Shown piece after piece: positions 24,847 through 46,932 of a stretch of DNA of 64,000 bases. Every line of letters starts with the position of its first letter. The first letter of the stretch is position 1. A program made the translations under genes and the position numbers. A model generated the notes under the pieces. That model searched no databases. It was not told where the DNA came from and was given only the letters and a program-made list of their open reading frames with translations. The DNA comes from Bacteroidales bacterium (GTDB lineage Bacteria; Bacteroidota; Bacteroidia; Bacteroidales; FEN-979), in the NCBI GenBank assembly GCA_963682005.1, contig OY820914.1:605433-669432 (forward strand), given 5' to 3'.

Positions 24847-24858
24847 TTTGGAAAATCT

Positions 24859-26938: not shown

Positions 26939-26998
26939 TGTTTGATCGAATTCAAAGGGCATTTACACTGAATGAACAGAACAAGCTGGTCGATCTGA

Positions 26999-27551: not shown

Positions 27552-28211
27552 ATGGGTAAACCAGCAGCACGAATCGGCGACATGCATACCTGCCCGATGG
27601 TTACGCCGGGTACCCCGCCCGTGCCGCATGTCGGCGGACCGGTAATGGGAGCCTGCGTGCCAACCGTATTGATCGGAGGCATGCCGGCAGCCGTAATGGG
27701 AGATATGTGTACGTGCGTCGGACCTCCTGATTCGATCATGCTGGGGTCAACGGGCGTTTTTATCGGGGGAAAACCGGCCGCTCGGATGGGCGACACAACA
27801 GCTCATGGTGGTGTTATAACACTTGGCTGCCCCACTGTTCTGATCGGAGAGACCATGCCCAGCGCCTCAGCCCCCGGCGTGATGCCAATCATAGCAATGC
27901 CGGCAGCCGTTCAAGCCGGGATGCAGGCCGCCATGAAACAGAGTGCTGCCTTTGCCACAAAAGCAGCACGAATTGAAGCATTGACCCAGGGAGCTCAAAC
28001 CGGGGCTGAAAAGGTCCATGGTCATAACGACCAGGAATGCAAGGTTCAATACAAAGTCACTGACAAGAATGGGAACCCGGCAAAAAATGTGAAATACGAA
28101 ATTCAGACATCCGATGGTAAAATTGTAAAAGGAAAAACGGATAAAGGAGGGATGACCCAAACTTTATCAGGATATACCGAAGGAATGTGCTCAATATCAT
28201 TCATTGATTAA
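27552..28211 (+). CDS. PAAR spike-tip protein 2 with a C-terminal TTR-like/beta-sandwich extension
   Basis: First ~100 aa are nearly identical to PAAR1; tail D..G.P..NV.Y.I...DG....G.TD..G.T. Confidence 0.9.
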   Translation: MGKPAARIGDMHTCPMVTPGTPPVPHVGGPVMGACVPTVLIGGMPAAVMGDMCTCVGPPDSIMLGSTGVFIGGKPAARMGDTTAHGGVITLGCPTVLIGETMPSASAPGVMPIIAMPAAVQAGMQAAMKQSAAFATKAARIEALTQGAQTGAEKVHGHNDQECKVQYKVTDKNGNPAKNVKYEIQTSDGKIVKGKTDKGGMTQTLSGYTEGMCSISFID

Positions 28212-28225
28212 CTCAGATCACTAAT

Positions 28226-29674: not shown

Positions 29675-29684
29675 TTCAGGAACG

Positions 29685-30269
29685 ATGAAATATTTGGCAC
29701 CAGTACTTTTTTTAATTTTCTTTCATTCATGCACCGCCCAGGTAAAAAACAACAAATCCGATATGGAAAAGTTTAACATCAGTGAATTTGAGAGTCATAA
29801 AGTCGGAGGTGAATATGTGCAGACCCTCAGTGACGGCACGGTCATCACACAATTTGGTGATTCCACCGGTTACTTTGAAAAATCTGTGCCTCCCCAGGGC
29901 TGGTTCTATCAATACAAGGAATTCTACGGCAACGGATTCCTGAAATTATCGGGATTGGCTTTTATCAGGGGAGATTACCAGGAAGGAACCTGGATCGAAT
30001 ATGATGAGGCCGGGAATAAAACGACTGAAACCAACTATAACAACAGTTACCACTTAACCCTTGATGATGTGCTGAAGATACTGGATGAACGCAAAATCCC
30101 CTATTCGACCAAAGATCCGTTCTTCAAGATAACAAGGGGTCTTGTGAATGCAAAAGGCATCTGGATCGTCGAATGGAAGATCATGGATAACAGGGTGGAG
30201 CGGTTAACCATTGAGGACCCTACAAAGTCTGTAACGCAGGACTACTATTTATTCCAGGGAGATCATTGA
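29685..30269 (+). CDS. Lipoprotein, putative cognate immunity protein
   Basis: Lipobox-like FHSC and MORN/YwqK-like segment (KEFYGNG.LK..G...G.W.EYDE.G); directly after the effector. Confidence 0.65.
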   Translation: MKYLAPVLFLIFFHSCTAQVKNNKSDMEKFNISEFESHKVGGEYVQTLSDGTVITQFGDSTGYFEKSVPPQGWFYQYKEFYGNGFLKLSGLAFIRGDYQEGTWIEYDEAGNKTTETNYNNSYHLTLDDVLKILDERKIPYSTKDPFFKITRGLVNAKGIWIVEWKIMDNRVERLTIEDPTKSVTQDYYLFQGDH

Positions 30270-30331
30270 TCAGGATATGATACCTTCATCCATGACCCGG
30301 GTTTGTTTAAAAAAGAATATGTGACAAGGTA

Positions 30332-30853
30332 ATGACTCAGAACAGATACTACATATTGCTTGATGCTGCCCGGATGGGCTCTGAAATAGAAACGGCCAAA
30401 AAACTAAATCAGGACTTTGCCTCCCTGTTTCTTGGGAAAAGTGAGGAATCACTTGAAATGGTAGCTCCATATCTCTTTACCTTCAACCTTAAATCGGAAT
30501 TTGCCTCATGGTTCTTTTCCTTCGGCTGGGGAAATTCCTGGGGAATAATATTCACCTCTGCAGAAGATATAAACCCTTTGATTTATCATTTTCAGCAACT
30601 GCTATTTATAAAAACCAGGGATAATGGTAATTATTACTTCCGGTTTTATGACCCGCGGGTACTGAGGAAAATCCTCCCTTCTTACGGAGGCAAGCAATTA
30701 AGTGAGTTTTTTGGCGCCATCACCCGGTTCATTTGCGAGGATGAAACACCGGGCCGGGGCCTGGTTTTTTCGCTTTTTGATAATGTTTTGAGAACGGAGA
30801 TACTATCGTCAGAACAACATCTGGACATTTTTAAAAATCTCATAATTGATTAA
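30332..30853 (+). CDS. DUF4123 T6SS effector chaperone (copy 2)
   Basis: YILLDAAR, VAPYLF, WGNSWG and FRFYDPRVLR; paralogue of 26246..26785. Confidence 0.9.
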   Translation: MTQNRYYILLDAARMGSEIETAKKLNQDFASLFLGKSEESLEMVAPYLFTFNLKSEFASWFFSFGWGNSWGIIFTSAEDINPLIYHFQQLLFIKTRDNGNYYFRFYDPRVLRKILPSYGGKQLSEFFGAITRFICEDETPGRGLVFSLFDNVLRTEILSSEQHLDIFKNLIID

Positions 30854-30886
30854 CTTTACCATTGTAAATCAAAACAAGGAGGGCTT

Positions 30887-31360
30887 ATGAAATATTTCCG
30901 ACTGGTTGCCTGGTCATTCCTGGTTATCTTTATGATTGGTTGCAATAATCAATCTTCCAAAACAGAAGCATGGACAAACCCGCTGGTCATATCCATTTCG
31001 GATCTCAAGGGAGAATTCATGCCTGATGCAGGAAATGGCACATTCGACTTTTCGCTAAAACTATCCCTGGATAGCCTGATTCAAAAATATGATCAGAATA
31101 CCATCCCCGATACGCTGGTGAAATACCTGGACGATACTACCTTATCGAAATCTGTCTTTCAGGGGAAACCAGTCATGACAGGAGTTATTTCTTTTGAAGC
31201 ACTATCCTTGCTCATATACTATGAACCAACCGATGAAAAAGGCGATGTTGCAATGAAGTGGCCGGGATTTATCAGGCCCGATGCTGGAGTAGCGGAATTG
31301 AAAGCAGCCAAAGAAGCCTGGCAAAAAGTATTGGCATCAAATACATTCAAGCGTTTATAA
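30887..31360 (+). CDS. Lipoprotein, possible immunity protein
   Basis: Lipobox MIGC; lies next to a candidate peptidoglycan peptidase. Confidence 0.55.
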   Translation: MKYFRLVAWSFLVIFMIGCNNQSSKTEAWTNPLVISISDLKGEFMPDAGNGTFDFSLKLSLDSLIQKYDQNTIPDTLVKYLDDTTLSKSVFQGKPVMTGVISFEALSLLIYYEPTDEKGDVAMKWPGFIRPDAGVAELKAAKEAWQKVLASNTFKRL

Positions 31361-31410
31361 ATCTGAATTTCACGAATCATGTTTAACCTGTTATCTAAAA
31401 AAGAACAGCA

Positions 31411-31821
31411 ATGGCAACTATTCCCGAAACCATCAATGGTGTAACAATTGAATTTGCAGAAGGAGTCAACAAAGATGTTGACCACAGCATGCTGAAAGGG
31501 TTGGTTCACTGCATTAAAAAAAATGTATCTGCCGAGCACACCCTGACTTCAATTTATATTGCCTCGGCAAGCGATTCTCACCAATTTCCCAGTCGGCATT
31601 CCATGAAAAAAGCTGTCGATATTTCCAGGATCAACGGAACAAAAATCGTGTTGGGATATCCCGGGAACAAGCTGGTTAAATCGATTGTTGCCGCTATTCA
31701 GACGACATTTGAGAGTTATCGCGGACGAAGGGAAAATTTCGGTCCTTTTCTGAAGAAAAAAAGCGGTACCGACTTTATCATCGATGGTCATAAAGACCAT
31801 ATTCATCTTTCTGTTAACTGA
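31411..31821 (+). CDS. Small M15/LAS-type zinc peptidase-like protein (candidate peptidoglycan hydrolase)
   Basis: SRHSMKKAVDIS (H-x6-D) plus HKDHIHLS (HxH); no signal peptide. Confidence 0.6.
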   Translation: MATIPETINGVTIEFAEGVNKDVDHSMLKGLVHCIKKNVSAEHTLTSIYIASASDSHQFPSRHSMKKAVDISRINGTKIVLGYPGNKLVKSIVAAIQTTFESYRGRRENFGPFLKKKSGTDFIIDGHKDHIHLSVN

Positions 31822-32273: not shown

Positions 32274-33131
32274 TTACCCACCGCTGTCATTGGCCATGTA
32301 AAGAAAAAGGTTCCGGCTTTTATCTCCTTTTATGGCAGAAATGATGCTTATCTCGGCACTGATCGTATTGACCAACTGGTAAAAAACTCCGTTACTGATC
32401 CTGACTTGTGAATAAACCGCAGGCAACTTTCCTGCCTTTGCAAGTTTACTTAACCGGCCTTTCGATTGTTGATTCATCATCACCCTTGCCAGCTCCTTTG
32501 ACAGCTTCACCCGTTCAGGCCTGGTCATTTTAGTCAGGACCTGAAGGATCGGCCGTTTGCTTGTTTTCGACAACCGGTATACAAGCTTGCCCGTTTCACC
32601 GATCGAAGCAACCCCATCCAGGAGCCCGATTACATCCAGTATATTATTTGTAACCTGGTACCACTTTAATGAATCAAGTACTTCGTTGTTCCTGGGCTGG
32701 TATATTTCATTGTACACCCTTCCTGCAGCCATTCCGCATTGGGCAGCCCCTCCGACAAGGGCAGCATACGACAGAACAGTAACAACGGTGGATGTCCCGG
32801 CTGTAACAGGAGCTGCAGCGGCTGAACCGATCGTTGCTACTCCGGCAAGAACTGTTGTGCCACATGAAATCCCTGCATTGATCAGTTCATTCCTGAGTTT
32901 CCCCGGTTGCTCCGGAGAGGAAGGTGCAGGGGGTTGAACTGCTTGCCCGGTAGTCACGGCATCCTGCACCACAACCCAGGTCTGTAATCCTTTTGGCATC
33001 ACCGGTTGACGCAATACCTCTGTCAGGGCAGGTCCGATATACAAGACACCAGCCGGCCGAAGTTCAGCATGCTGACCGACGCTGGCCAGTATTTTTGATT
33101 TCTGAAAGCCGGACAGATCATCCTGACCCAT
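32274..33131 (-). CDS. Hypothetical protein with a Cys-flanked hydrophobic hairpin (candidate effector)
   Basis: ISCGTTVLAGVATIGSAAAAPVTAGTSTVVTVLSYAALVGGAAQCG; begins 37 bp after tssF. Confidence 0.6.
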   Translation of the reverse strand: MGQDDLSGFQKSKILASVGQHAELRPAGVLYIGPALTEVLRQPVMPKGLQTWVVVQDAVTTGQAVQPPAPSSPEQPGKLRNELINAGISCGTTVLAGVATIGSAAAAPVTAGTSTVVTVLSYAALVGGAAQCGMAAGRVYNEIYQPRNNEVLDSLKWYQVTNNILDVIGLLDGVASIGETGKLVYRLSKTSKRPILQVLTKMTRPERVKLSKELARVMMNQQSKGRLSKLAKAGKLPAVYSQVRISNGVFYQLVNTISAEISIISAIKGDKSRNLFLYMANDSGG

Positions 33132-33168: not shown

Positions 33169-35043
33169 TTATACTGTAATTTCAACTCTGAACGGAATAA
33201 CATTGGCTGAACATTGTTCAAGCTTCTCAAGCAATTCTTCCTTCAGGAAAAGCAATTCATTTGAACTGAATGAGACCCTTTCGAGGAACCGGATCTCAAC
33301 ATCCGTTACTTTCAATATGCCCTGTCCTTTCTTGGGGCTCTGGATATAGCTTTTCTTAACATCAACGTTGATCTTATGAGGACTGAAATGCTCATGGCAG
33401 AATGCCTTTACATCGGCAACCGTCAGGATCCTTCCCCTCGTAAGCAGCAGTTTTCTCAAACTATCCCGGTGCTCCTCTTCAGTGGGTGGCTTTTTTCCTC
33501 CTGTAATTGTGGTAATAAGTCTGAGGCTGTCGGGCTTTACATCAGGAAGATGATCGATCTTGCATTGCTTTGCCGATTCCTGTCCCATAACCGGCCTGAT
33601 TTCATTCGCCAGTTCTCCGGAGGTTGTCCAGAAGCGGATAAATACTTTTGAGTGTTCCCTGTATGGACGAAGAATGATATTCCCGGAAAAGCGGGAGTTC
33701 TTGTTCTTTTCAATAACGATGCTCTTCTCAAATTCCCCTAAAGCTCTGTTAAGCCGGTAAAGCTTTTCAAGATCTTCTTTGGTTCCGTCCTTGGTCAGCA
33801 GGATGGTTTCTTCCTTAAGGAGGTTCGACAACAAACTGAGCATTGCTTTCAGTTTTCCGGGCTCCAGCCTGCTGAGATGATCAAGCCGGAACAATGCTTC
33901 GCCTTCCTTGCCAACAGTTTCATGAACATTGGCGTCGACGATCCTGTAGTCCTTCTCTTCCGGCAGGTTTCTTACTTTCCCGCGGACTGATTCAATGGCC
34001 AGGAAAAAATCATCTGATGAGATTGGAAAAATATTGATCGGCATGTTCTCCACATCGAAAAGCTCCTGCTCAACACGGAGGTTAACAACAGGAAAGCAAT
34101 TTATGCTGCAGATCAGTTGATTTATCCAGCTTTCCTCGAGAAGGTTGCTGAATGAGATCCTGAACCAGGTGATATCTCCCTTGATCTTTAAAATATCGTT
34201 CCGCGAGAATACTTTTCTTATTTCTTCAGGAAATTCCTCCGGCAATTCAGAACTGGACGGAATGTCCTGAAGGGTGATAAAATGCCTCCGGTACCAGTTC
34301 TTGACATTCTGGAAAAGCTGGTACACGATATAATCCGGGTGATCGAGCATTTTATCCTGAGTCTCCGTTTCGTCTGTAATAAACCCGGAGCGTGTTTTTA
34401 TCGGGTTGACCCCATCCGTACATTTAGAAAACTTCAGGGCATTCAGAAGCGAATACTGGTCATTACCGGGTTGGGGCAAGGCGAAGAACAAAGAAAGCTC
34501 TTTCATCGGCATAAGGTCTTTCAAATCACGGATGCCTATCCACAGAACATTTGCCTGGATTGCCTGGCTTGATTCTCCGCTGAACAGCAACGTTTTCTTC
34601 CTGTCCTCCATCTGGTAAAACCGGTTATGAAAAACGAGGTACTCGATTTCCGCCTTATGTACATTGAAGTTCCCGGCCGGTGTAAACATGAACTCTCTAC
34701 GTTGTGAATCAAGCCGGGAGATGATCAGCTGTTTTCCGGCACTGACCGCGGCGGAAGATAATCCGTCAAAAGGGCGGCCATAAACGATTCCATGAGCCGG
34801 AGATGGTATATAATATTCCTCAGGCAGGAACTGCTCGATCATCCGCTTGATGAGCCGGTTGCTCACATGAAAGATCTCTTCATGCACATTCCCGATTTCT
34901 TCGGCACATGCACCATAAAGGAGCTTTACCACCGGATCACTCATGAAATTCTCTCGTTCATCGTGATTCCAGTCTTCCCGGATCATGATCTCTTCAGCCT
35001 TCTTGAACATGTGTTCCAGGATATCACTGGTGATGGGTTTCAT
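33169..35043 (-). CDS. tssF: T6SS-iii baseplate subunit
   Basis: DPVVKLLYGACAEE, PSPAHGI, NCFPVVN, FWTT.GELAN and RGRILT..D.K.FC; 624 aa; follows tssE. Confidence 0.88.
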   Translation of the reverse strand: MKPITSDILEHMFKKAEEIMIREDWNHDERENFMSDPVVKLLYGACAEEIGNVHEEIFHVSNRLIKRMIEQFLPEEYYIPSPAHGIVYGRPFDGLSSAAVSAGKQLIISRLDSQRREFMFTPAGNFNVHKAEIEYLVFHNRFYQMEDRKKTLLFSGESSQAIQANVLWIGIRDLKDLMPMKELSLFFALPQPGNDQYSLLNALKFSKCTDGVNPIKTRSGFITDETETQDKMLDHPDYIVYQLFQNVKNWYRRHFITLQDIPSSSELPEEFPEEIRKVFSRNDILKIKGDITWFRISFSNLLEESWINQLICSINCFPVVNLRVEQELFDVENMPINIFPISSDDFFLAIESVRGKVRNLPEEKDYRIVDANVHETVGKEGEALFRLDHLSRLEPGKLKAMLSLLSNLLKEETILLTKDGTKEDLEKLYRLNRALGEFEKSIVIEKNKNSRFSGNIILRPYREHSKVFIRFWTTSGELANEIRPVMGQESAKQCKIDHLPDVKPDSLRLITTITGGKKPPTEEEHRDSLRKLLLTRGRILTVADVKAFCHEHFSPHKINVDVKKSYIQSPKKGQGILKVTDVEIRFLERVSFSSNELLFLKEELLEKLEQCSANVIPFRVEITV

Positions 35044-35061
35044 GTGTAATAAATTAGATTT

Positions 35062-35514
35062 TCAGTATTCAAAAGAAATATTAACGTTTGTATGCCGCTC
35101 GTCCGTTTGTTTGATGGTATATTCAAGCATCAGCGTTATTTTATAATCCTTCAGGTATTTACCGCTTGTTTTTCCGGTGGCCGGGTTACGTTCTGCGGGC
35201 TCATCCTCTTTATTTATCGCCTTGATCTCAGGCTCCCTCACCTGCACTGCCGTGATTCTGTCTTCATATTTTTCAAGCATGTCCTTCACCTGTTCGATAA
35301 ACCTTGGCTGCCACTGATGAATATTGAGGATCGGCTCAAATTCATAGGACCATATCTCATATCCGAAATCCTCATTAAAAAAACATTCGCCTTGCTTTGT
35401 AGCGATAAGCAGGCCGATCAATTGCTTGATCGATTCCTCCACCGACACCCTTTCAAAGGCACCTGAACGGCTGCGCTTATTAAACGTCAACGGGATATTG
35501 AGATACGGTTTCAT
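35062..35514 (-). CDS. tssE: T6SS baseplate gp25-like subunit
   Basis: YL.IPL.F...SI.Q.I.LLI.T..GE.....FG..IW...YE.RI. Confidence 0.88.
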   Translation of the reverse strand: MKPYLNIPLTFNKRSRSGAFERVSVEESIKQLIGLLIATKQGECFFNEDFGYEIWSYEFEPILNIHQWQPRFIEQVKDMLEKYEDRITAVQVREPEIKAINKEDEPAERNPATGKTSGKYLKDYKITLMLEYTIKQTDERHTNVNISFEY

Positions 35515-35789: not shown

Positions 35790-36878
35790 ATGCAAAAATT
35801 TTACTGTAACAGTTGTGAGAATACCTTCTTTCAGGATGCTTCCGACGGATTGACCTGCCCTTCCTGCGGCAGCAACAGTGTCGCCCTTCTTTCGGAGGAA
35901 ACCTCAGGTCATTTCTGGAAATCCATGACGTTCATTATTTCGATGGCCGTTATGGCCGTGATGCTCCTGACCCTGGTCCTGCTCCCATCCGGAAATAAGG
36001 TAATAAAACCTACATTCAACATCTCGGTAAAAACCTCCCCGAAAGATCGTCTTGTTGTTACGATTATTACGGTTGGAAATGAAACCGCTGATCCTAAAAA
36101 ATTCGAGTACTCTGTTGATAACGGATATACCTGGCACACCCAATACGCTTATTACTCTGAAATTAAACGGGATCTTTATATCCTGGTGCGAGAGAAAGCG
36201 AATCCGGAAGAGGTTATGGCCTATCCTGAAAACCCTGTCAGCTATGCGCCGGTTCCAAGGCTGATCGCAACGCCAAAAACCAAGGATTGCAATTGCCGTG
36301 AACTGATGATCATCTCTGTTGATCCCCCCGGAAAAGGCAGCAACATGATAACCATTCATGCTACCCTTCCACAATGTGAAAAATTGTATTCCATTACCGG
36401 TGCACCTGATTCCTATCAGACAGATAGTTCTTTTCTTCTTGATAAATCCGGGAGCTACACCATCTTTGTGAAAACCGCCAATTGTAATCCTGTCGCATAC
36501 GGCCGGAACCCGTTTGTTTATACAAGTAAGGAGTATGATCAGCCACAGCCAACAACGCCCCAGACCAACTATGTGCTGGAGGATAACATCGACAACAAGC
36601 CGTTAAAGCCGGCATCCAACGAAAGCAGGGACAAACTGCCCGCTACCATTGTGCAATCTATAATCAAGCCTTCTGAGACCTCCGTACATGGTTTGCTGAT
36701 TGTCACTTTTATTGTAGAAACCAGTGGCGAAGTATCCCACGTCAACATCATCAAAGGAATAAACGAAGGGGTTAACAGCAAGGTAAAGGATTACCTTGAA
36801 ACAATGGGTCTGTGGAATGTCGGACGGGTTAACGGTAAAACTGTTAAAACAAAAGTGACATTGCAGCTTACCTTCTAG
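35790..36878 (+). CDS. Zinc ribbon + TM + Ig-like + TonB C-terminal domain protein
   Basis: CxxC...CPSCGS, one TM, YSVD.G/YSI.G Ig-like segments and a C-terminal V.FIVE..G.V..V.I.KG...W..G...GK.V. A TACCTTTG promoter element lies at 35721. Confidence 0.7.
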   Translation: MQKFYCNSCENTFFQDASDGLTCPSCGSNSVALLSEETSGHFWKSMTFIISMAVMAVMLLTLVLLPSGNKVIKPTFNISVKTSPKDRLVVTIITVGNETADPKKFEYSVDNGYTWHTQYAYYSEIKRDLYILVREKANPEEVMAYPENPVSYAPVPRLIATPKTKDCNCRELMIISVDPPGKGSNMITIHATLPQCEKLYSITGAPDSYQTDSSFLLDKSGSYTIFVKTANCNPVAYGRNPFVYTSKEYDQPQPTTPQTNYVLEDNIDNKPLKPASNESRDKLPATIVQSIIKPSETSVHGLLIVTFIVETSGEVSHVNIIKGINEGVNSKVKDYLETMGLWNVGRVNGKTVKTKVTLQLTF

Positions 36879-36880: not shown

Positions 36881-38524
36881 TTATTTCTCTTTATGTGCCT
36901 TCCTGTCTGTTCCTGAATCCTGGCGATCGTAGATCAGATCTCCCGGACTTTGCGTGAAGATCTTTCTTGTTGTATGCTTGAGGGCAAAGTAACTTGCCAC
37001 AAGGATGAGGATCAGTGACGTTATCGTCCATTGATTCACCAGGTCGAAATAATTCTCACCCGCCTCCATGGGGCTTTTAAACAGGATGAGAACAAGCCTG
37101 ACCGCCCCCATTGAACCGACAGTCATATTGACCACGTACGAGATGACAATGGCAATGAGGATTACGCTGAAGATGATAGAAAGGTAAATCTTTTCCAGTG
37201 AACGATGATGGATCCCGAATGCCTTGAATGTGCCAATATTCATCTTGATCCGATCAAGGTGATTCCTTAAAAGATTGGTGAGGAATAAAATGATGCTGAG
37301 GACACTAAAGATCATTAGGATGATTGAAATGATCTGTGTCAGGTTGGATATGAAATTATAATTTTCCAGTGCTTTCACCTGTCCCATATCAATCCGCATT
37401 TTATGGGTTGCCTGCAGGTAATCGTTAAAGTCTTTCAGTTTATCCAGGCTGGTAAATTCAACGACCAGCTTATCCAGCCAGAAATTTGCAACGCTATCCA
37501 TCGTGACAGTAGTTGTATAATCAGCATACCTGGTAAAGCTGAATCCCCTTATTTTTTTATCATTTGCAAGAGCATGATAGATTCGATCCCGTAAAGCAAC
37601 GGATGTGTCAGGTTTAATTCCCACATTGATCTGGTAGCACGGAAAAAATGAGTAGTCATAGGGCTGTATGTCGACAATGGGTGCAAGGTGGTTGTATTTT
37701 GGATCTTCTTTGAGAAGTTGCTTGATCTTGTCTTTTAATTCATGTGCTCTTTTATCCTTTTCAATCGTCAGAAATGCAATCCCCGGGGGCAGTGTCGGAT
37801 CAAATGGGTTGTAGGTGGTCAGGGCCATTTGGCGTTGCTGGAAGAAATAGGTCGTTGCAAAAAAGTCATTTTTCCCCGGCAGCTCTCTGACAACGGCAAT
37901 AATTGGCAAAGGAACTTCCCTGAATTTATCCTCGGTGGTGGATTTATCCGGAAATGCCATGATGAGGTATGGTGACTTATGCTCATAACCGAGTTTTTTA
38001 AGCAGCTTGGATGTCACGATCAATCCCAGCTCCCTTTCCTGTAAAAATTCTCTTCCGTAGATGAGGTTACTGTCTTTCAGGATAACCTTTAGCATGGGGT
38101 TACCCAAGTCTATCGTTCTTCCCTTCATATCTTCGGATGCGGCATCATTCTTTCTGACATCCCAGAACCGGAGCGAGAATGACCGGTACCCTGTTACACT
38201 GCGGTATTTATATTTCTTTTTCGCCAGCGTATCTTCCTTAAGCTGCCTCATGATCTCAGGCAGTTCATCGGCCTGAACATAAGGAATATCAATGGATACC
38301 CATTTGATAAAAGGATCATTCATCTTTTCATTCAGGTAACGAAGGCTCCCTTTTGCAAAGCCAAGAGCAAAAAAAGTGATCAAGAAAATGATCAGCAGGA
38401 AAATAAAATTGCTGAAATTTTTTCCCATAAGCACTCGTCCTTCTTTTTTAAAAAAGAGGTAGGCAAAATCCACAGAAATATTGGTGAACAAATATTTTGA
38501 AAAAAAAGCAAATATTTTTTTCAT
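36881..38524 (-). CDS. FtsX/MacB/LolC-type ABC permease
   Basis: N-terminal TM, large periplasmic domain and three C-terminal TMs with the R.K.NIGTFKAFG coupling motif. Confidence 0.8.
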   Translation of the reverse strand: MKKIFAFFSKYLFTNISVDFAYLFFKKEGRVLMGKNFSNFIFLLIIFLITFFALGFAKGSLRYLNEKMNDPFIKWVSIDIPYVQADELPEIMRQLKEDTLAKKKYKYRSVTGYRSFSLRFWDVRKNDAASEDMKGRTIDLGNPMLKVILKDSNLIYGREFLQERELGLIVTSKLLKKLGYEHKSPYLIMAFPDKSTTEDKFREVPLPIIAVVRELPGKNDFFATTYFFQQRQMALTTYNPFDPTLPPGIAFLTIEKDKRAHELKDKIKQLLKEDPKYNHLAPIVDIQPYDYSFFPCYQINVGIKPDTSVALRDRIYHALANDKKIRGFSFTRYADYTTTVTMDSVANFWLDKLVVEFTSLDKLKDFNDYLQATHKMRIDMGQVKALENYNFISNLTQIISIILMIFSVLSIILFLTNLLRNHLDRIKMNIGTFKAFGIHHRSLEKIYLSIIFSVILIAIVISYVVNMTVGSMGAVRLVLILFKSPMEAGENYFDLVNQWTITSLILILVASYFALKHTTRKIFTQSPGDLIYDRQDSGTDRKAHKEK

Positions 38525-38556
38525 ATTTTCCAGTTTAGATGGATGGGTCTCCGGTT

Positions 38557-39381
38557 CTAAAATATCGATTGAATTTCCCTGAGGATATCAGGAACATCTT
38601 CATCCTGCCAGGTCAACCAGGAATTGGTTCCTCCTTTCCTTGTAAACAAACCATCCTGTGATAATTCAACAACCTTGTTTTCGGTCGCCTGTTCGCGCAA
38701 TAAGATCAGCACATCGGCATATTTTAATGAAAGATGAATGTTGTGGCTGACAATGATGGCTGATCTTTTGTTCTTCAGCAGGTTCTCCTTAAGAATGGAG
38801 ATAAGCTCATCGGAATTTGATTCATCCAGGTTGCCGGTTGGTTCGTCACCAAAGAGAACCGTAAATTTGGGAGTGATCGCTCTTACAAATGCAAGACGTT
38901 GTTTCTGCCCACCCGATAATTCAACGGCATTTTTCCAATCGGGGATTTCAGCAAGGCCCAGGGTCGACATAACAGAACGAACATTTGCATTTGCATTTTC
39001 CATGGTGGCTCCCTGGATCATCTGGGTCAGGCAGGCATTTTCCAAGGCAGTAAAATTCGGCATCAGGTTCGTATTCTGAAAAATAAAACTGAAATATTCC
39101 CGCCGGATCCTGCCTCTCTCCGAGAAAAGCTGTTCTTTCCAGAGATTTGCAAAGGAAATTTCCGAACTGTCCTCATTTGGCAAAAAAAGAATATCGCCAC
39201 TTTCGATCGTGTTGTTCATGAGTCCAAGGGTCTCCAGAAAGGTGCTTTTCCCGCTCCCGGATTTTCCCAGCAATACGACGAGCTTATTCCTTGGGATTTG
39301 AAGATCCGCGACTTTAAGCACAACATTCCCCCGTTTATATGCACAGTGGAGTTTCTTTATGATAAACAAAGGATTATCCAT
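38557..39381 (-). CDS. ABC ATP-binding protein (LolD/MacB-type)
   Basis: GKSGSGKS, FIFQ, LSGGQKQR, DEPTGNLD and VSH motifs. Confidence 0.92.
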   Translation of the reverse strand: MDNPLFIIKKLHCAYKRGNVVLKVADLQIPRNKLVVLLGKSGSGKSTFLETLGLMNNTIESGDILFLPNEDSSEISFANLWKEQLFSERGRIRREYFSFIFQNTNLMPNFTALENACLTQMIQGATMENANANVRSVMSTLGLAEIPDWKNAVELSGGQKQRLAFVRAITPKFTVLFGDEPTGNLDESNSDELISILKENLLKNKRSAIIVSHNIHLSLKYADVLILLREQATENKVVELSQDGLFTRKGGTNSWLTWQDEDVPDILREIQSIF

Positions 39382-39393: not shown

Positions 39394-40800
39394 TTAATAG
39401 AAAAAACGAAGGTCTACCCAATAGTACCGGGTGCTATTTGATACAAAAGTCAGCTTGCTGTTCTTCCCGGTGGATAACCGGGATAATTCATCCAGGCTTG
39501 TTCTCATTTTAGCCAGGAACGGGATGAGAAAGCTATCAGGAATCAGCGATTCATCTGTTAGTTTTCGTACAGAATTATTCAAAACGGCTTCGGATGAGTT
39601 TGTAATCCAGAAGAGATTCTCAAAAATTTCCTTCAACTTGTAATTCAATATTTTCTCCTCTTCAAGGTTCGGATATTCCTTTTTCATCAGGAGTATCAGG
39701 GTGAGTTTCAGTTTCTGCCTGTCGAGAACTGTTGATGAATTATCAATGACCGACCTCATATTCAACACCACTTCCATAAGCTCCTGGTTCGACATCAGGG
39801 TGACGTATTTGAACAGCGGATACTGCATGGAATCTGGTTTCCAGGGGGCATAGGCTGTTTTAAAATCATCGTCGACCATTTTAATTTTTTCTATTCCATC
39901 CTGTTCTTTGATCAGGGGAAAATAAATCCAATCATTTTTATCGCTTTCCGGTTGATAATTCCAGATCACGAACTTTTTGTCTGCCTTGCTTGTTTTCCTG
40001 AATCTGATGGCCTGCTCCTGATCAAAAAAGATGCTGGGAGCAATATTTTTCGAACTCATTTCACTCAATGCTTCAGGTGAATCGTTCGGCATGATCCAGG
40101 TCCGGGATTGCGGCAGGTAGCAAAAATCAATGGGAACCCATCCGATTATGATTTCCATTGGATCTGTACCAAAAGGGATTTTCCTTTCCCTGCCCAGGAG
40201 TATGGCCTTAGGTTCAATCTTATATACAAAATATAATTGCCTGGCTTCGGTGTATATTTTTCGTTTCTGCAGCAGTTCAGGGTCATTGTATACCTCCACC
40301 CCTGTTTTACTGTTCCCGGAGTTCTCTTGCGTGTTATACATATCTTCCTGGCCAAACGTCATAGCCTGAATATTTTGTTTCGTTTTCCCGTCGATAAGAC
40401 AATGACGCCATAAAAGGAGATCGTGCATATTGATCCAGCCTTTATCAACCGCTGTTTTTCCAAGATAAAAGTTATTCAGGTCTGGCGAGGGGTCCGAATA
40501 AACATGGAGGTATTCACCTACCATGTTGTTCACGAAATAGGTGTCATTTAACGATGCTTTCGAACCGATCTCCTTTGCCTCGGAAGTGCGGAAAAGGTTA
40601 TTGTTGCTCCTGTCTGAAAAAACTTCCCAGTAAGCCCCGGTATTTATGCTCAAAACATTACTCCTGTCCGCATTGTACTCAGGAACAATATATTCCTGTG
40701 GGATACCCATTATTTTAATTGGCAGATTCTTCTGCGCTGCGAGTACAAGAGGAAATAAGAGGAAAATGAAAATCATCCTCCTCTTTGAAAAATTGTCCAT
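39394..40800 (-). CDS. TssR-like protein lacking the vWA domain
   Basis: Shares WEVFSDR, GWI...LLLWR.CL, F.YK, GWV and the C-terminal YW.. with 40825..43266, but has no MIDAS motif; signal peptide present. Confidence 0.7.
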   Translation of the reverse strand: MDNFSKRRMIFIFLLFPLVLAAQKNLPIKIMGIPQEYIVPEYNADRSNVLSINTGAYWEVFSDRSNNNLFRTSEAKEIGSKASLNDTYFVNNMVGEYLHVYSDPSPDLNNFYLGKTAVDKGWINMHDLLLWRHCLIDGKTKQNIQAMTFGQEDMYNTQENSGNSKTGVEVYNDPELLQKRKIYTEARQLYFVYKIEPKAILLGRERKIPFGTDPMEIIIGWVPIDFCYLPQSRTWIMPNDSPEALSEMSSKNIAPSIFFDQEQAIRFRKTSKADKKFVIWNYQPESDKNDWIYFPLIKEQDGIEKIKMVDDDFKTAYAPWKPDSMQYPLFKYVTLMSNQELMEVVLNMRSVIDNSSTVLDRQKLKLTLILLMKKEYPNLEEEKILNYKLKEIFENLFWITNSSEAVLNNSVRKLTDESLIPDSFLIPFLAKMRTSLDELSRLSTGKNSKLTFVSNSTRYYWVDLRFFY

Positions 40801-40824: not shown

Positions 40825-43266
40825 TTACGGCAGATCTGTTTGCTGGATCCAGTAGAACCGCTGTTCATGGTTTATAAACGAATAATGCTGATACCCTGGA
40901 ATATTATCCCTTATCTTGTTAAGAATCTTTTCCTTTGATCCGACCCTGTTTACCCATTTCGTCAGGTCTCTGTCTGATATGATGGAAGCATCTCCGATAT
41001 CGCGGATCTTATGCTGAAGGAGTTCGGTCTTCCCGACCGCACCAAATACAGTGGCTTCAGCTTCTGCAAGGGACATCTCCTCAATTTCCTTGTTTGAGAC
41101 GGACCCCATATGGCTTTTAAGCACCTGCATCCATGCGTTCTTAAATGCCTCCCTCAGCTGATCCGGGCTTAGCCCTTGTTCAATGGACAAGCTCTTTATC
41201 CGTAAAATCAATTCGGAGAGTTCCTCATTGCTGAAAAGAAGATCAAACTGCCAGAGGGGCAACTGTGCATTTTTTATGGTATTTGTGGTATAGCCCTCAC
41301 TGTAAACCTGTGCATGTTCTTCTGCAAGTATTTTCAGGTTTTCAACAGGAATATCCCAGATCGTCAGAAGGTTTAATACAGGACCAGTGAGGTTTTCCGT
41401 ACCTCCTCCATCCTGAAGATTCTGAACATTGGCCAGGGTGGCATTTGTAGAATCATTGATGCCGTGAATTGCTTTCACGATTTCTTTTGTTAACACTGGT
41501 GCTGACATGACGCCATCCTGACCAACAAACGTCTGTTGCATGACAAAACCTGCCTTTAAGGGAGAATTCAATAACATCCATTTTTTATCCTGGTCATAAT
41601 TGACCGGTAGAGTTGGGGGGGGCTTCACTGAATTTGTGGCATTTGCTGCATCCTGGAAATCGTTATAAACAAGCCGGCCCAACGTCACCAGGATATTCTT
41701 GGTATCCTTTACGAATTTATTGTAATACTCCCATCCGGCTTTGGGACAATGGACCTGGAAAGCAATGAAGCTGCAATTATAATCATGAAGCAGGTTGATG
41801 ACATCCGTGTTTGTAACAGGATTGTCATCGATCGCCTTGCCGTTATCTCCGGCATCTCCCACCAGGATAACAACATTTGTCTGCTTCTTGTCGGGGCTTG
41901 TTTTACGCAAAGCCGAACTTACACCATAGTTCACAGCTTCCGTAAAATCATGGTCATCATCATTGCTGAATGCTTTTCTATCCCGAAGCCAGCTTGCGAT
42001 TACACCATAATCGGAACTCAATCCTTTAAATTCTGCAACATTGTCCTTATCTTCCTTGTCCCTGTATATCATCACGGAAAATCTGAAATCATTCCTTTTG
42101 TCTGAGACAAGGTCCTTCATGCTCTCAATGATCCCCTCGCTTACACTGGCAAAATAGGGACTCATGCTTTTCGTTCCGTCAATCACGAAGATCATATTGA
42201 TGTTGCGGTTGATATCGCTACCCTTATTCAATAATTCCTTGGTATCAGCCCATTGAAATTCCGTGAGTTTACGGCCGCTTATGGTGTTGACTTCACCGAT
42301 CGATCCGATCTTAAAGATTTGATTTGTTTTATTGATCTCATCCTGGTTGGACAGGATCGGGAACCGGCTGAAATAGGAGCCGTATTGACTAATTGATTTG
42401 CATGAGTCATAATCCCAGACGACAGATTCAGGAGGGGGCTGTTGATTATCACGGTATTTCCGGGCTGCTTCGATGGTACTGAAAACGATGGCCTTGGATT
42501 TACGGGAATTCCTTTCTGAGATGGCTTCTGAAGCTGTATTGGGTATGGAAGCAACACGGTGATCCCAAACTGTAACCCGTTTTGCATCAACCCAACCTTT
42601 CACAGCATCCTTTTCAACATAATTCATAAACCTCGCCGTTGTGCCGAGCAGGTATGATCTGGGCTTTGTTGAGTTCGGAAAATAATTGATCTTATAGATG
42701 TAAAAAACCTGGTAAACATTGCATACATATTCATTTTTTTCCTTCATGTCAGGATCATCATAGAACCTAACAAATTTTGATTCGCCCGGCTCGAGCTTCG
42801 CCTTGGTCGCAAATTTTATGGTATTCATCAGGACGGCTTTTTTCGAAACGTCCTGTTCATTGTAAAGGCAACTCCTCCAAAGCAAAAGATTATCCTGGTG
42901 GATCCAACCATAATCCTTTGATGCCAGTGAGGGTTTCATTTCCTGTTCTGCCAGGTTATTATCCTTATAGATATGGATGTATTCTCCATCCACTTCTCCC
43001 ACGAAAAACCAATCCAGGTATTTTAAGGTTTTCATGACTTTTGTTCCGCCAGGAGTTGTATAAGTCTGATTCTTATTCCTGTCGGAAAACACCTCCCAGA
43101 TTGCCGTCAGATTGTCTCCCGGCAATTCTACTTTTGCTTCTAGATGTGGCTTATTATACTTGTTTGGGAGCATCTTGTAAGATTTTTCCCCGGTCTGGGC
43201 AAATCCTGAGCAAAATAGCAACAACAACAAATTCAAACACAGTAAACTCCTGAACATGAAAATCAT
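40825..43266 (-). CDS. tssR: T6SS-iii TssR-family protein with a vWA domain
   Basis: WEVFSDR.KN, LLLW..CL, vWA FVIDGTKSM...VILVGDAG and C-terminal FYWI...LP. The likely start is 43266; the 43323 start overlaps the upstream gene. Confidence 0.78.
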   Translation of the reverse strand: MIFMFRSLLCLNLLLLLFCSGFAQTGEKSYKMLPNKYNKPHLEAKVELPGDNLTAIWEVFSDRNKNQTYTTPGGTKVMKTLKYLDWFFVGEVDGEYIHIYKDNNLAEQEMKPSLASKDYGWIHQDNLLLWRSCLYNEQDVSKKAVLMNTIKFATKAKLEPGESKFVRFYDDPDMKEKNEYVCNVYQVFYIYKINYFPNSTKPRSYLLGTTARFMNYVEKDAVKGWVDAKRVTVWDHRVASIPNTASEAISERNSRKSKAIVFSTIEAARKYRDNQQPPPESVVWDYDSCKSISQYGSYFSRFPILSNQDEINKTNQIFKIGSIGEVNTISGRKLTEFQWADTKELLNKGSDINRNINMIFVIDGTKSMSPYFASVSEGIIESMKDLVSDKRNDFRFSVMIYRDKEDKDNVAEFKGLSSDYGVIASWLRDRKAFSNDDDHDFTEAVNYGVSSALRKTSPDKKQTNVVILVGDAGDNGKAIDDNPVTNTDVINLLHDYNCSFIAFQVHCPKAGWEYYNKFVKDTKNILVTLGRLVYNDFQDAANATNSVKPPPTLPVNYDQDKKWMLLNSPLKAGFVMQQTFVGQDGVMSAPVLTKEIVKAIHGINDSTNATLANVQNLQDGGGTENLTGPVLNLLTIWDIPVENLKILAEEHAQVYSEGYTTNTIKNAQLPLWQFDLLFSNEELSELILRIKSLSIEQGLSPDQLREAFKNAWMQVLKSHMGSVSNKEIEEMSLAEAEATVFGAVGKTELLQHKIRDIGDASIISDRDLTKWVNRVGSKEKILNKIRDNIPGYQHYSFINHEQRFYWIQQTDLP

Positions 43267-43279
43267 AGTTTGTCTCCTC

Positions 43280-45373
43280 CTACTCTTTTGATAAATTATA
43301 GAAAAAATAATCAACATTCGCATTTACATTCTGCTGGTCGGAACTGCTGCCAGTCTGGGTTTCTTTATTATAATTGATCAGGTCTCTCGGATCAATATCC
43401 TTGTCCAGAAAGACATATACCTTGATATTCCTGATATTGTCATGAGGCAGAATGATCCCGTCATTAACAATTCTTGAAATGAACATCCTTCCTCCATCCT
43501 TATATACCGAATAGGGCATATAAAACTGGATCTTTATCGTTGACTCAGTGGCAAGGTCAAGCTTCTGTATGGCATTATTGAAATTTGTGAAATCTTCATT
43601 CAGGTTTGGTTTGTCATCAAACAGCATCTGTATTTTCTGTAAAGTGCCCCGGTAAACTGCAGTATCGGAGGTAATATAAGGACGTTCCGCATTACTGACA
43701 AACAGTGAAAACGGAATATTATAGGCCTTAATGGATTCAAGTCTTGACTCGAGGGATTTGCGCGTGATTATACGGATAGAGGGCATGGGCAGGGTATAGA
43801 TGATGCTATATGATTTAGTAACTGAAAGATTAACCCTTTTTCCTGCATTGATCTCAGTGGGCGATAAAACGATGGAAAGCTTATCATAGACGGGGTCCGT
43901 AATGAAGATCTTGTATTTGATCCCTTCCATGCTGATCATATCGGGAATACCGTCTTTTACCTTGTATTTGATGATCGGATCGCCTTCTTTTGGTAGTGGG
44001 AACCCAATCTGCAGGTAACAATAATCAATGGGACGCCCTTTCTCAGGATCAAAAAAGTCGAGCTTTAATGTAGTTTTCGGAAACCGGATGCTGGCATTAA
44101 ATTTCACAATTTCATTTTTCGAATTCTTTGATGCCTTTAACTCCGACGGGGCTTCACAATCCAGAATAATGTCTGACCGGGATTGAAACAATTCAGGAAA
44201 TACCAGTGTATCCCGTACCTGGTCAAAAAACAGTTGCTGTCCTTTATACGCGAATATCAGCGGCAGCTTGTTCTTTCCGATAAGGGCCAGGGCTTCCGGA
44301 TCAGGATCCGACTCCCTGCGGTTTGTTTCCGCCTGTTCAACATTCACCGGGATTTCGATCGTATTCAATTGAAATTTCCGGATTTGCCTGTTGGATTCTT
44401 TGGATAACACCCTCAGCGTATCCGTGTGGGCAGAAAACTTAAAGTACATGGTACTTTCATTAAATGTCGACATCCGGCCGCTGATAAATGCAAGAATCTC
44501 AGGATAAACGATGGGGTTGATCTCTGGTAGCTTGGTAATGACAGGCCTGTTTACTGGAGATTCCACGGGTGTTTCAGACAGACCAGGTTCCGTGGCTTTG
44601 GGTTCTGCATTAAGAGCAGCTGGTTGCGTTTCAGGTGAGGATGGTGGGTTTACAGGTGCAGGCGGTGGTGTTACCGCTGCGGGAGGAATTACCGGGACTT
44701 CAGGTGTCTCGGTTTTTGCAATCGATTTCCCGGGCCAATCCACTTTTTCCACTTCGGTCAGCTGCATTTCAATTTTTTGCTTCACTTTAAATGCGGGTGG
44801 CAGCTCCGGGCACTTTTGCTTGTTGCAAAGTATGAACAGGATACCCTTTGCATCAGCGGGGTTTTTCATCAATTTCGAAATGTTATCTGCGAGCATTTTA
44901 TTGGCATTCAGATCCACCGCGATCAGGAAAAATTCCGACATATCTTCAAGATCCAACTGGGCTGCATTCTGAACGAAGACATCCGAAAGCAATGTGTGAA
45001 CTCCCGGCTGTGTTGTGGTATCAGAAGGCTTGGCCCAAAGAACATCCATATCAACAAGTGATGTGTTGCTGATCCCGGCAAAGCCCACAAGAATTTTCCT
45101 GGCAGGTATCCCTTCCGAACTTTTTTGCGGACCGATCTGATATTCAACCTTGAGCGGGATCAGAAATACCCCCTGAAGTGTACTGAAATCTTCCCCTGCC
45201 CTTGAGATGCCGTAAAATGATTTCGGGGTTGAGAAATCTTTCCTGGAGATTGGCAGCGGGGCAAAGACTTTCTTCTGCAATTCAACTTGTGCAGTTGCAT
45301 ACCCAGGGTCAAGGATAAGCAGGAGAAAAGATAAAAAACCGAAAAAAACTGAACGTGTATATGATCTTACCAT
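43280..45373 (-). CDS. Exported hypothetical protein with a Pro-rich linker
   Basis: Signal peptide, central PPAAVTPPPAPVNPP linker; tightly coupled to tssR. Confidence 0.7.
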   Translation of the reverse strand: MVRSYTRSVFFGFLSFLLLILDPGYATAQVELQKKVFAPLPISRKDFSTPKSFYGISRAGEDFSTLQGVFLIPLKVEYQIGPQKSSEGIPARKILVGFAGISNTSLVDMDVLWAKPSDTTTQPGVHTLLSDVFVQNAAQLDLEDMSEFFLIAVDLNANKMLADNISKLMKNPADAKGILFILCNKQKCPELPPAFKVKQKIEMQLTEVEKVDWPGKSIAKTETPEVPVIPPAAVTPPPAPVNPPSSPETQPAALNAEPKATEPGLSETPVESPVNRPVITKLPEINPIVYPEILAFISGRMSTFNESTMYFKFSAHTDTLRVLSKESNRQIRKFQLNTIEIPVNVEQAETNRRESDPDPEALALIGKNKLPLIFAYKGQQLFFDQVRDTLVFPELFQSRSDIILDCEAPSELKASKNSKNEIVKFNASIRFPKTTLKLDFFDPEKGRPIDYCYLQIGFPLPKEGDPIIKYKVKDGIPDMISMEGIKYKIFITDPVYDKLSIVLSPTEINAGKRVNLSVTKSYSIIYTLPMPSIRIITRKSLESRLESIKAYNIPFSLFVSNAERPYITSDTAVYRGTLQKIQMLFDDKPNLNEDFTNFNNAIQKLDLATESTIKIQFYMPYSVYKDGGRMFISRIVNDGIILPHDNIRNIKVYVFLDKDIDPRDLINYNKETQTGSSSDQQNVNANVDYFFYNLSKE

Positions 45374-45411: not shown

Positions 45412-46932
45412 TTAATAAGCAGTAAGACGGATGTTTATGCCAAGATCAAGACTGAATGCAGAAAGGGAGGCCTTGGAAGCTCCATAAAGACTGTTGAATG
45501 TATCATCACCGTTATACACGCTATAACCCGATCCCCTGTTTGCAATATTTGAAAAACCGTATGCATATTCAATGCCCAGGAATAAATCAATACTTTTCGA
45601 AAGACTTGCTTTAAGGCCCAGACCGACAAGGGCCGAAAGGTTGATGGAATTCAGATATGAATTGGTTGAAGTTGAAGAAAGGTCAGAATACGTGCCATAT
45701 CCATAGTCAGACAATTCATTTCCCCAAAGGATAATATTATCATACCCCGGATATTCTCCCATAAATGTACCGGTTCCGACTGTGGTTGTATAGTCTTTGG
45801 AAAGCACAAAGCTTGCTTTTATTCCCAGTTTCCCATAGAGCGAAAGTGCTTTTGATACTGAAAGGTCATATTTTACATAAAGAGGTATCTGCAGGTAGGA
45901 AATTTTATCTTCCTCCTTCAATGAGGTAAGCGTATCAATCAGGTTATACGGATCATTATCAATATCCACAAATTTTTCCGGAACATATTCATCAATATGG
46001 TTTGTCGTCAGTGTATTGGTATACATTCCATAATCGATCGTCAGGCCGACGCTTAACAATCCTGCTGAAGACTTGAACAAACCTGCTTCGATACCCAGGC
46101 CACCGGCCAGGACGATCCCCGACTCAGATGTAAGTGACGAGATATTTCCCTGTCCCTGATCGGCGATCGTTACATTGAACATGGAGTAGCCCGGAAGTAA
46201 ATGAATAACAAATGATATTGGTTTCTTATTGGCTTCAACTCCCGAGTCGGCAGTAATTATTCCCATTTTGGATACCTCGTCGCTCGGGCAATATTTTGTC
46301 AAGGCTTCCGAGAAGGCTGTTTTGGCTTTCTTGTAATCTTTTTTTGCAAGATATGTTTTCCCGATGTCGCGCAATTCCTTGCATTTATCGTTCCCGATGG
46401 TGTCTTCGATTTTCGCAATTTTGAACGAAGTAAGCAGGTCGTTGAACTGGATGACAAAATTCAGAGGGGTTTTAGGTGAATGGATATGTTCATCCTTGTA
46501 CATCCCCTGCATTTCCTTCCGGGTACTTACCACGATCTGATAATTGTTCTTGCTATAGCTCTGGATGGGGTTTTTCTTTCCGATCTTAACGACCACGACC
46601 ATACCTGCGGGATACCACTGCCTGACATATTCAATATATTTTGAGACCGTGATATGCGTCGGGGTTTTTTTCGAATAATCGAGGTCGTTGATTACATCAA
46701 CTTCAGGAGAAACAAAAAGTTTCCGGAATCCGTCGACATATTCTTCCAGGATCTTGCCTTCATCAACATCCCTGGTGAACTGTGAAAATTCTTCATATCG
46801 GCGAATGATGGAATCTGCCTTTCGGTTGACGGTGTTTTTTTCCGCTGGTGTAAATGTACGCTGTGCGAACCCGGGAAGAGAGAAACAGATGGTGATGACA
46901 GAGAGAAAATAATATATCTTTTTCATAGTCAT
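45412..46932 (-). CDS. Outer-membrane beta-barrel protein with N-terminal periplasmic and TPR-like domains
   Basis: Signal peptide, TPR-like helix pair, amphipathic strands, YLQIPLY and C-terminal FSLDLGINIRL (PorT/OMP_b-brl_2-like). Confidence 0.75.
   Translation of the reverse strand: MTMKKIYYFLSVITICFSLPGFAQRTFTPAEKNTVNRKADSIIRRYEEFSQFTRDVDEGKILEEYVDGFRKLFVSPEVDVINDLDYSKKTPTHITVSKYIEYVRQWYPAGMVVVVKIGKKNPIQSYSKNNYQIVVSTRKEMQGMYKDEHIHSPKTPLNFVIQFNDLLTSFKIAKIEDTIGNDKCKELRDIGKTYLAKKDYKKAKTAFSEALTKYCPSDEVSKMGIITADSGVEANKKPISFVIHLLPGYSMFNVTIADQGQGNISSLTSESGIVLAGGLGIEAGLFKSSAGLLSVGLTIDYGMYTNTLTTNHIDEYVPEKFVDIDNDPYNLIDTLTSLKEEDKISYLQIPLYVKYDLSVSKALSLYGKLGIKASFVLSKDYTTTVGTGTFMGEYPGYDNIILWGNELSDYGYGTYSDLSSTSTNSYLNSINLSALVGLGLKASLSKSIDLFLGIEYAYGFSNIANRGSGYSVYNGDDTFNSLYGASKASLSAFSLDLGINIRLTAY

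Follow-up and report, generated by a model that had tools for sequence, protein, structure and literature searches.

A predicted type VII ABC transporter linked to divergent TssR-like genes in Bacteroidota and embedded in a rare T6SSiii subtype

The ABC pair and its family

The DNA considered here, a stretch of 64,000 nucleotides from a Bacteroidales bacterium of the FEN-979 lineage (contig OY820914.1, positions 605,433 to 669,432; hereafter "the window"), is a Bacteroidota type VI secretion system (T6SSiii) locus, as judged by Pfam and NCBIfam scans of its open reading frames (ORFs), and our subject is a pair of ATP-binding cassette (ABC) transporter genes within it. Both lie on the minus strand: an ABC ATPase of the LolD/MacB/FtsE class, 274 aa long with a C-terminal extension of ~45 aa (38557-39381), and an FtsX-type (type VII ABC) permease of 547 aa with four transmembrane (TM) helices and a periplasmic domain of ~330 aa (36881-38524). 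Upstream, on the same strand, are two genes related to tssR. The nearer, TssR-short (468 aa, 39394-40800), has TssR N-barrel, M and C domains, no VWA domain and a signal peptide of the signal peptidase I (SPI) type, and its stop codon is 12 nt from the ATPase start. The farther, TssR-long (832 aa, 40825-43323), has N-barrel, VWA and C domains and belongs to the clade of ABC-linked TssR-like proteins described below.

The ATPase matches Pfam ABC_tran (E 1.9e-22) with all motifs intact, namely Walker A (GKSGSGKST), Q-loop, LSGGQ, Walker B (...DEPT, with D179 and E180) and H-loop (H213). When it is aligned with 69 homologues (70 rows), the invariant motif residues are kept in 93-100% of the rows, and the window protein departs from the majority at three variable motif positions (K40, S43 and N214). 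Its top NCBIfam models are LolD, bacteriocin-export ABC, PhnC, FtsE, DevA and MacB, and all of them score far under their equivalog cut-offs (129.6 vs 307.75 bits and 111 vs 360 bits for LolD, 113.7 vs 264.85 bits for FtsE). The closest solved chains are LolD, YbbA, MJ0796, BceA and MacB, and E<=1e-20 is reached by 23 chains.

In the permease, TM1 (residues ~39-57) precedes the periplasmic domain (~60-390), which is followed by three C-terminal TM helices. Pfam FtsX matches residues 401-518 (E 3.2e-5), at 24.4 bits slightly under the cut-off of 25.5. The AlphaFold2 (AF2) model of the protein (pLDDT 86.2, pTM 0.74) resembles type VII ABC permeases exclusively, both in Foldseek (MacB, LolE and LolC at E 2e-10 to 1e-8) and in VIA (LolE at Z 16.0, with a root-mean-square deviation of 7.2 over 385 aligned residues; YtrF 15.1; MacB 13-15; FtsX 11-13). 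Residues 63-385 superpose on the periplasmic domain of LolE (5udf; Z 10.1, 186 residues), and an insert of ~85 aa in the periplasmic domain (~248-330) is not covered by the matched domains. As far as motifs and predicted structure can tell, the two proteins are confirmed as a type VII ABC transporter, i.e. as members of the MacB/LolCDE/FtsEX-like mechanotransmission superfamily.

Within this superfamily the permease represents a distinct and unnamed Bacteroidota family, rather than an ordinary Lol or efflux permease, because it has no NCBIfam match, a profile of 33 members of its family matched none of the PDB sequences at E<=1, the MacB_PCD signature was not found in it (all 14 MacB_PCD matches in the genome from which the window comes lie elsewhere), and the 104 clusters of the family in our protein collection are all unnamed or "hypothetical", bar two with a generic permease label and one with a generic ABC ATP-binding label. 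Five of the 104 clusters contain fusions of the permease to the nucleotide-binding domain (NBD), with the NBD N-terminal.

The original prediction, a short note made from the DNA letters, had described an ATPase with intact motifs 12 bp after a tssR-like gene, a permease of 1+3 TM topology with a large periplasmic domain, a tssR pair upstream, no adjacent membrane-fusion or TolC gene, and membership of the mechanotransmission superfamily. All of this agrees with our results, coordinates and strand included, and goes well past what chance would give: the periplasmic domain is ~330 aa long in a model of pLDDT 86, Pfam TssR domains score above cut-off in both upstream genes, HlyD/membrane-fusion protein (MFP) and OEP/TolC domains were found in none of the 54 window ORFs scanned, and the structural and NBD matches place the pair in the superfamily.

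Linkage to divergent TssR-like genes

A scan for relatives of the pair gave 185 loci, of which 80 were kept. A simple ORF caller combined with phmmer placed a TssR-like gene, the ATPase and the permease in this order on one strand in 64 loci, and tblastn recovered the triplet in seven others, where the ORF caller had chosen the antisense frame or split the permease. Seven loci end less than 3.3 kb upstream and are uninformative. Among the 73 informative loci the order TssR-like, ATPase, permease was observed in 71 (median gaps of 15.5 and 5 bp), and linkage to a TssR-like gene in 72, the additional case (L076) having the TssR-like gene next to the permease with no ATPase between them; L018 is the sole informative locus without an adjoining TssR-like gene. 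We also examined 401 evenly sampled Bacteroidota genomes (398 with a completeness of 90% or more). Five of them contain the permease, each with a divergent TssR-like gene 1.8-3.3 kb away, and these are exactly the five genomes whose best TssR_VWA match is weak and restricted to the VWA core, though above cut-off. One genome with a canonical TssR (G321) has a second, weak TssR_VWA match and no permease. The linkage of the ABC pair to a divergent TssR-like gene is very strong. The note had named as its refuting outcome a permease that belongs to an ordinary Lol or efflux family and lacks linkage to tssR, and profiling of the permease against TssR gave the opposite on both counts.

The exceptional locus, L018 (genome G010, 1-16968), has the ATPase and permease amid genes resembling those of contractile injection systems (VgrG-like, PAAR, gp25, a 1115-aa Baseplate_J-like protein and eCIS_core). 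Its permease is broken by a single TAG, and its contig has two TssR-like genes ~32 kb upstream. It would be a second tie of this ABC family to a contractile injection system. Seven other loci (L006, L009, L010, L025, L028, L033 and L057) were deposited as Enterobacteriaceae, Thioalkalivibrio, Caldiserica, Eggerthellaceae, Treponemataceae, a Methanomethylophilaceae archaeon and Staphylococcus. All seven show the Bacteroidales gene order. In the tree the majority of their TssR-like proteins fall among Bacteroidales/Alistipes rows (for example those of L025 and L033 with L019 and L024). They are probably mis-binned contigs.

The TssR-like proteins linked to the ABC pair share the Pfam TssR N-barrel, M, VWA and C domains with the canonical TssR of T6SSiii. 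In the window the scores above cut-off are 61.7 (N-barrel), 63.3 (VWA) and 42.5 bits (C) for TssR-long, and 30.9 (N-barrel) and 28.3 bits (C) for TssR-short. They differ from canonical TssR in that they match the Pfam VWA model in its core only and have SPI rather than signal peptidase II (SPII) signals, the TssR of Bacteroides fragilis being an essential membrane-complex subunit and an SPII lipoprotein (PMC10781749). The signal peptide of TssR-short has no Cys, and those of TssR-long and of the window's outer-membrane (OM) barrel both finish in ...GFA|Q, a site of the SPI type. A lipobox, sought with a loose sequence pattern in place of a dedicated predictor, is missing from 65 of 71 TssR-like proteins linked to the ABC pair.

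The genomic distribution separates the two kinds of TssR as well. Eight genomes have a strong full-length TssR (E <= 1e-57); none of them has the permease and seven have TssC. In these genomes tssR follows three short conserved genes (~170, ~160 and ~300-340 aa, which we took as TssQ/O/P) and lies beside clpV or hcp. In a tree of 84 TssR-family proteins (a quick search under LG+G4, with long branches flagged) the seven canonical TssR fall into a clade of their own (SH-aLRT 99), with the ABC-linked proteins outside it, and the window TssR-long pairs with the TssR-like protein of locus L002 (SH-aLRT 99). The ABC-linked clade is always paired with the ABC genes and canonical TssR never is. The window TssR proteins, then, lie outside the canonical clade, have SPI signals, and stand in a locus where the canonical TssP, TssO and TssQ profiles (HMMs) find no match; when these profiles were run on the window and related loci, the sole match was a homologue, in locus L066, of the window's 162-aa TM protein (E 0.0016). 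Beside the canonical clade we note one genome (L092, G177:C14:3000-22999; 100% complete) in which a canonical TssR (E 5e-90) stands next to tssF and clpV, yet PF17541 finds no TssC genome-wide; its T6SS may be degraded or divergent.

The AF2 model of TssR-short (pLDDT 87) has two N-terminal domains (~57-231) that fold as SH3-like barrels, with bacterial cell-wall-binding SH3b domains as best matches at Z<=7.2, below the level of Z 8 that the structure-search tool rates as common, in a search that barely covered the C-terminal half. We treat this predicted resemblance as a lead only.

The cassette and the T6SS loci that contain it

The triplet is part of a larger conserved cassette. Its usual order is a large protein that is either sorted by the type IX secretion system (T9SS) or built of BACON/Ig repeats, an OM barrel of ~520 aa, a Zn-ribbon/TM protein of ~300 aa, a secreted protein of ~210 aa, the TssR-like protein of ~800 aa, the ATPase and the permease. 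Genes for a Ser/Thr kinase (STK), a PP2C phosphatase and FHA-TM proteins often come before or after it, and one FHA protein is fused to a trypsin-like domain. Counted by phmmer (E<=1e-3) over the 80 loci, homologues of the OM barrel were found in 47-52 (three queries), the ~210-aa protein in 42, STK in 37, PP2C in 27 and FHA proteins in 28-32. The cassette of the window retains the OM barrel and the Zn-ribbon protein; no homologue of the ~210-aa protein was found in the window, and its genome (96% complete, a single contig) has 0 matches each to the Pkinase and FHA domains. Locus L005 (11548-20847), deposited as Acetofilamentum sp., has three TssR-like genes in its cassette, after which come SrfB (E 8e-215), a protein of 329 aa, SrfC/Virul_Fac (E 8e-148) and a subtilase.

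Most of these loci have no T6SS nearby. Within 10 kb of the permease tssB, tssC, hcp and clpV were found in 0 of the 80 loci, tssE in three and tssF in two. Among the 401 genomes TssC was found in 14 by PF17541, a model that may miss divergent sheaths, the permease in five, and both together solely in the genome of the window. The pairing of TssR-like and ABC genes is not specific to T6SS and occurs mostly in genomes without one. The T6SS setting that the note had assumed thus stands in part: the linkage to TssR-like genes is conserved, but these genes form a divergent clade found mostly in T6SS-less genomes, and the loci of canonical TssR lack the ABC pair.

A subset of cassettes is nonetheless found inside T6SS loci. 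A search with an alignment of TssF sequences (window, L002 and L066) led to four other genomes, a single TssF query having returned no loci, and the resulting T6SSiii subtype comprises five genomes (the window genome, G001, G043, G451 and G452). In all four with long contigs (the first four) the cassette lies within the T6SS locus. In G001 and G043 it adjoins tssE-F or tssK. In G451 the genes run on one strand in the order PKD/T9SS protein, OM barrel, TssR-like, ATPase, permease, two unknowns, tssG, tssN, tssK, the 162-aa protein, tssE, tssF, clpV, tssB, tssC, hcp and vgrG, and its TssR-like protein has TssR_M and TssR_C domains and no VWA match. G452 is represented by fragments only, with TssR-short, ATPase, permease and Zn-ribbon genes on one contig and tssF on another. 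The permeases of the long-contig genomes are ~35-43% identical and the arrangements of their cassettes differ. Canonical TssO, TssP, TssQ and TssR were not detected in the subtype, whose loci have no other TssR; in the window genome (G000) a search for the TssR N-barrel found none besides TssR-short and TssR-long.

In the window the cassette belongs to a minus-strand block that separates tssF and tssE, which encode baseplate proteins (33169-35514, minus strand), from a group on its other flank (55525-59007, minus strand) made up of the 162-aa TM protein, tssK (56032-56979), tssN (57069-58016) and tssG (58027-59007). Besides the TssR-like and ABC genes this block holds two T9SS-sorted surface proteins and a 1120-aa protein. 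The rest of the T6SS core consists of clpV (15857-18319), tssB (18379-18837), tssC (18856-20238), two copies of hcp (20268-20660 and 20738-21139) and vgrG (21151-23001), with PAAR and effector/immunity genes after it.

The other cassette members and neighbours in the window surround the genes already described. A bitopic protein of 362 aa (35790-36878, plus strand), with a cytoplasmic Zn-ribbon, one TM helix and a periplasmic domain, matches the HMM of its cassette family (E 1.8e-37), and its gene converges on that of the permease with a gap of 2 bp. On the minus strand, upstream of TssR-long, are a 697-aa secreted protein of unknown family (43280-45373), the OM beta-barrel (506 aa, with a TPR-like N-terminal part; 45412-46932) and a PKD-like protein with a T9SS C-terminal sorting domain (46955-48388), a variable neighbour of which a similar version adjoins the cassette in G451. 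Homologues of the 697-aa protein occur in five of the 80 loci, in four of them (L002, L004, L072 and L076) at most two genes upstream of the TssR-like gene, and a structure-atlas search with it gave best scores of <=0.83, an uninformative level.

Several further features of the window touch its T6SS. Directly 3' of tssF is a 285-aa protein (32274-33131, minus strand) matching the NCBIfam Ssp4-family T6SS effector (E 5.5e-50) at 170 bits, below the 300-bit cut-off. The effector region on the plus strand (23011-31821) contains a PAAR protein, a WHH/colicin-DNase nuclease with SUKH immunity, two DUF4123 adaptor genes, a second PAAR protein, which carries a Big_1 domain, and a 482-aa protein that weakly matches astacin. 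Just upstream of clpV (13893-15501, plus strand), genes for an extracytoplasmic function (ECF) sigma factor, a zf-HC2 anti-sigma factor and a Metal_resist periplasmic protein form a possible local regulator of the T6SS. Between a redox gene cluster (409-9663) and the T6SS locus lies a 144-aa ORF (11792-12226, minus strand) with an IS1595-type transposase zinc-ribbon domain (E 3.5e-9). A scan for promoters and terminators, made with a consensus ill-suited to Bacteroidota, gave the same counts in the window as in shuffled sequence. Elsewhere, a divergent T6SSiii locus without TssR or cassette (L099-L100, G421:C45:60001-100000) carries genes for PP2C, FHA and Ser/Thr kinase proteins at a distance of ~10-20 kb from clpV, possibly reflecting phosphorylation-based control of a Bacteroidota T6SS.

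Possible roles of the ABC pair

On balance, we lean towards an ABC machine of a distinct family that acts by mechanotransmission on its TssR-like partner or partners and that, in this subtype, has been co-opted as an envelope module of the T6SS. The transporter would then not be a trans-membrane exporter; ATP hydrolysis in the cytoplasm would move the large periplasmic domain, which would in turn act on the TssR-like protein(s), as in its structural relatives. This working model is borrowed from FtsEX-EnvC, where mechanotransmission reaches a periplasmic partner, although the periplasmic domain of the window permease (~330 aa) is far larger, there is no EnvC or amidase partner and the ATPase does not reach the FtsE cut-off. 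The OM barrel, the bitopic Zn-ribbon protein, the ABC pair and the TssR-like proteins may together span the envelope, as a module older and wider than T6SS, and in the rare subtype this module would probably supply, assemble or gate the periplasmic and outer-membrane part of the T6SS membrane complex.

A number of observations weigh against a role in secretion. PF17541 finds TssC in five of 50 cassette genomes (metagenome-assembled genomes, so that absences are soft), and in the even sample the four permease-bearing genomes other than that of the window, all 100% complete, have no TssC by either the Pfam model or a query with the window TssC. A T6SS role can therefore hold for certain lineages at most, and the cassette might simply ride along in the locus. 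Profile-profile comparison of the cassette Zn-ribbon and ~210-aa families with TssP, TssO and TssQ gave nothing significant (best P 0.0046, probability 7.6%). The T6SS-embedded copies are not monophyletic in the TssR tree or in the permease tree, both of them quick searches with long branches. In the latter the embedded label needs three changes, at least two of them forced by starred branches; the permeases of the window, L002 and L001 group with that of L039, from a genome without detected TssC; and all five embedded permeases fall in a clade of 28 rows together with 23 non-embedded ones. The subtype itself was sampled by a pattern search and possibly extends beyond five genomes.

One may go further and regard the TssR-like/ABC/OM-barrel cassette as a free-standing ATP-driven trans-envelope machine that was the source of the T6SSiii TssR and that still serves as the envelope part of the membrane complex in the subtype. 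We hold this to be possible, if on the whole improbable. If true, the subtype would be the first T6SS in which a dedicated ABC ATPase assembles or gates the envelope complex, and the cassette would be a candidate for the ancestral system that was sought without success by Bongiovanni et al. (2024).

An alternative explanation is that the cassette is a separate envelope or surface-protein system that was inserted into the T6SS locus and has no function in secretion. The absence of TssC from most cassette genomes fits this, as does the window itself, where the cassette splits tssE-F from tssK-N-G and is flanked by T9SS-sorted surface proteins. However, one would then have to account for the retention of the cassette in all four long-contig loci of the subtype, despite the low identity of their permeases and their varied arrangements, and for loci that hold no other TssR. 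We consider such an unrelated insertion rather unlikely.

A precedent for T6SS function that the note had left out is TagTS, a Lol-like ABC (COG1136/COG4591) in the H1-T6SS locus of Pseudomonas aeruginosa, which two reports describe as required for T6SS activation, with ATPase activity needed in vivo and a role that is undefined (PMC13584744, PMC13713981). Like TagT/TagS, the window pair is a Lol-like ABC in a T6SS locus with no known transport, a likeness at the level of the superfamily. By analogy, the ABC could relay an envelope-damage signal to a Ser/Thr phosphorylation pathway that triggers assembly, as in TagQRST-PpkA-PppA-Fha1, and the frequency of STK, PP2C and FHA genes around the cassette makes a kinase input attractive for the loci that bear them. 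In the window, though, it cannot apply, its genome having neither Pkinase nor FHA domains; about half of the cassette loci have no STK within 10 kb; and the phylum and the type of T6SS are different, the window genome lacking equivalents of TagQ/TagR, PpkA and Fha. The permease also lacks the MacB_PCD signature, which TagS presumably carries, to go by its COG. As an explanation of the window pair we consider a sensor of this kind unlikely.

The note had also proposed traffic of T6SS lipoproteins, i.e. a Lol-like extractor that would free TssR or other lipoproteins from the inner membrane. The structural matches are indeed closest to LolE and LolC, the best NBD match is LolD, the fold is shared with LolCDE, and the TssR of B. 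fragilis is a lipoprotein of the SPII type (PMC10781749). The identity to Lol proteins is, however, ~9%; the permease has no Lol match in NCBIfam; the ATPase misses the LolD equivalog cut-off widely; and the window has a single permease gene, whose periplasmic domain is larger and carries the insert. The extraction of lipoproteins is disfavoured because the signals of the TssR-like partners, apparently non-lipidated proteins, are SPI-type and mostly without a lipobox, and we regard it as very unlikely.

Least probable of all, and very unlikely, is a MacB-type pump for efflux, peptide export or self-protection, or else a protein that activates cell-wall hydrolases in the manner of FtsEX (the peptidoglycan remodelling suggested in the note). 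The superfamily includes both kinds, the 4-TM FtsX fold and the N-terminal NBD of the fused forms are as in MacB, and the N-terminal domains of TssR-short recall SH3b domains. Efflux is disfavoured because MFP and OEP genes are absent and the pair keeps one kind of protein partner throughout. The operon positions that MFP and TolC have in MacAB-TolC are filled by an unrelated OM barrel and the TssR-like protein, and MacB_PCD is absent. The conserved cassette has no hydrolase or EnvC-like gene, and the SH3 matches stay under Z 8.

The ABC superfamily, and the notion of a Lol-like ABC linked to T6SS, are already known. The permease family, its fixed partnership with the TssR family, the T6SS-independent cassette and its embedding in one T6SSiii subtype appear to be unpublished: a literature search returned no paper tying TssR to an ABC transporter in Bacteroidota and nothing combining FtsX, von Willebrand and FHA in Bacteroidota, and "ABC" occurs 0 times in the article text of PMC10781749. 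The 2024 study that defined TssNQOPR reported no membrane-complex loci outside T6SS, a statement that the divergent TssR-like clade qualifies for TssR alone.

To the open question of where the T6SS membrane complex of Bacteroidota came from, the cassette contributes a concrete candidate for the source of TssR. Many Bacteroidales that have no T6SS, among them (by deposited names) gut Alistipes, Prevotella and Muribaculaceae, encode a TssR-family protein as the fixed partner of a type VII ABC, and this protein would add a new class of partner to the mechanotransmitting ABC transporters. Beside TagTS, the pair described here would be a second, independent Lol-like ABC tied to T6SS. Even if the ABC proves irrelevant to secretion, the cassette would represent a widespread and uncharacterised envelope system of Bacteroidota.

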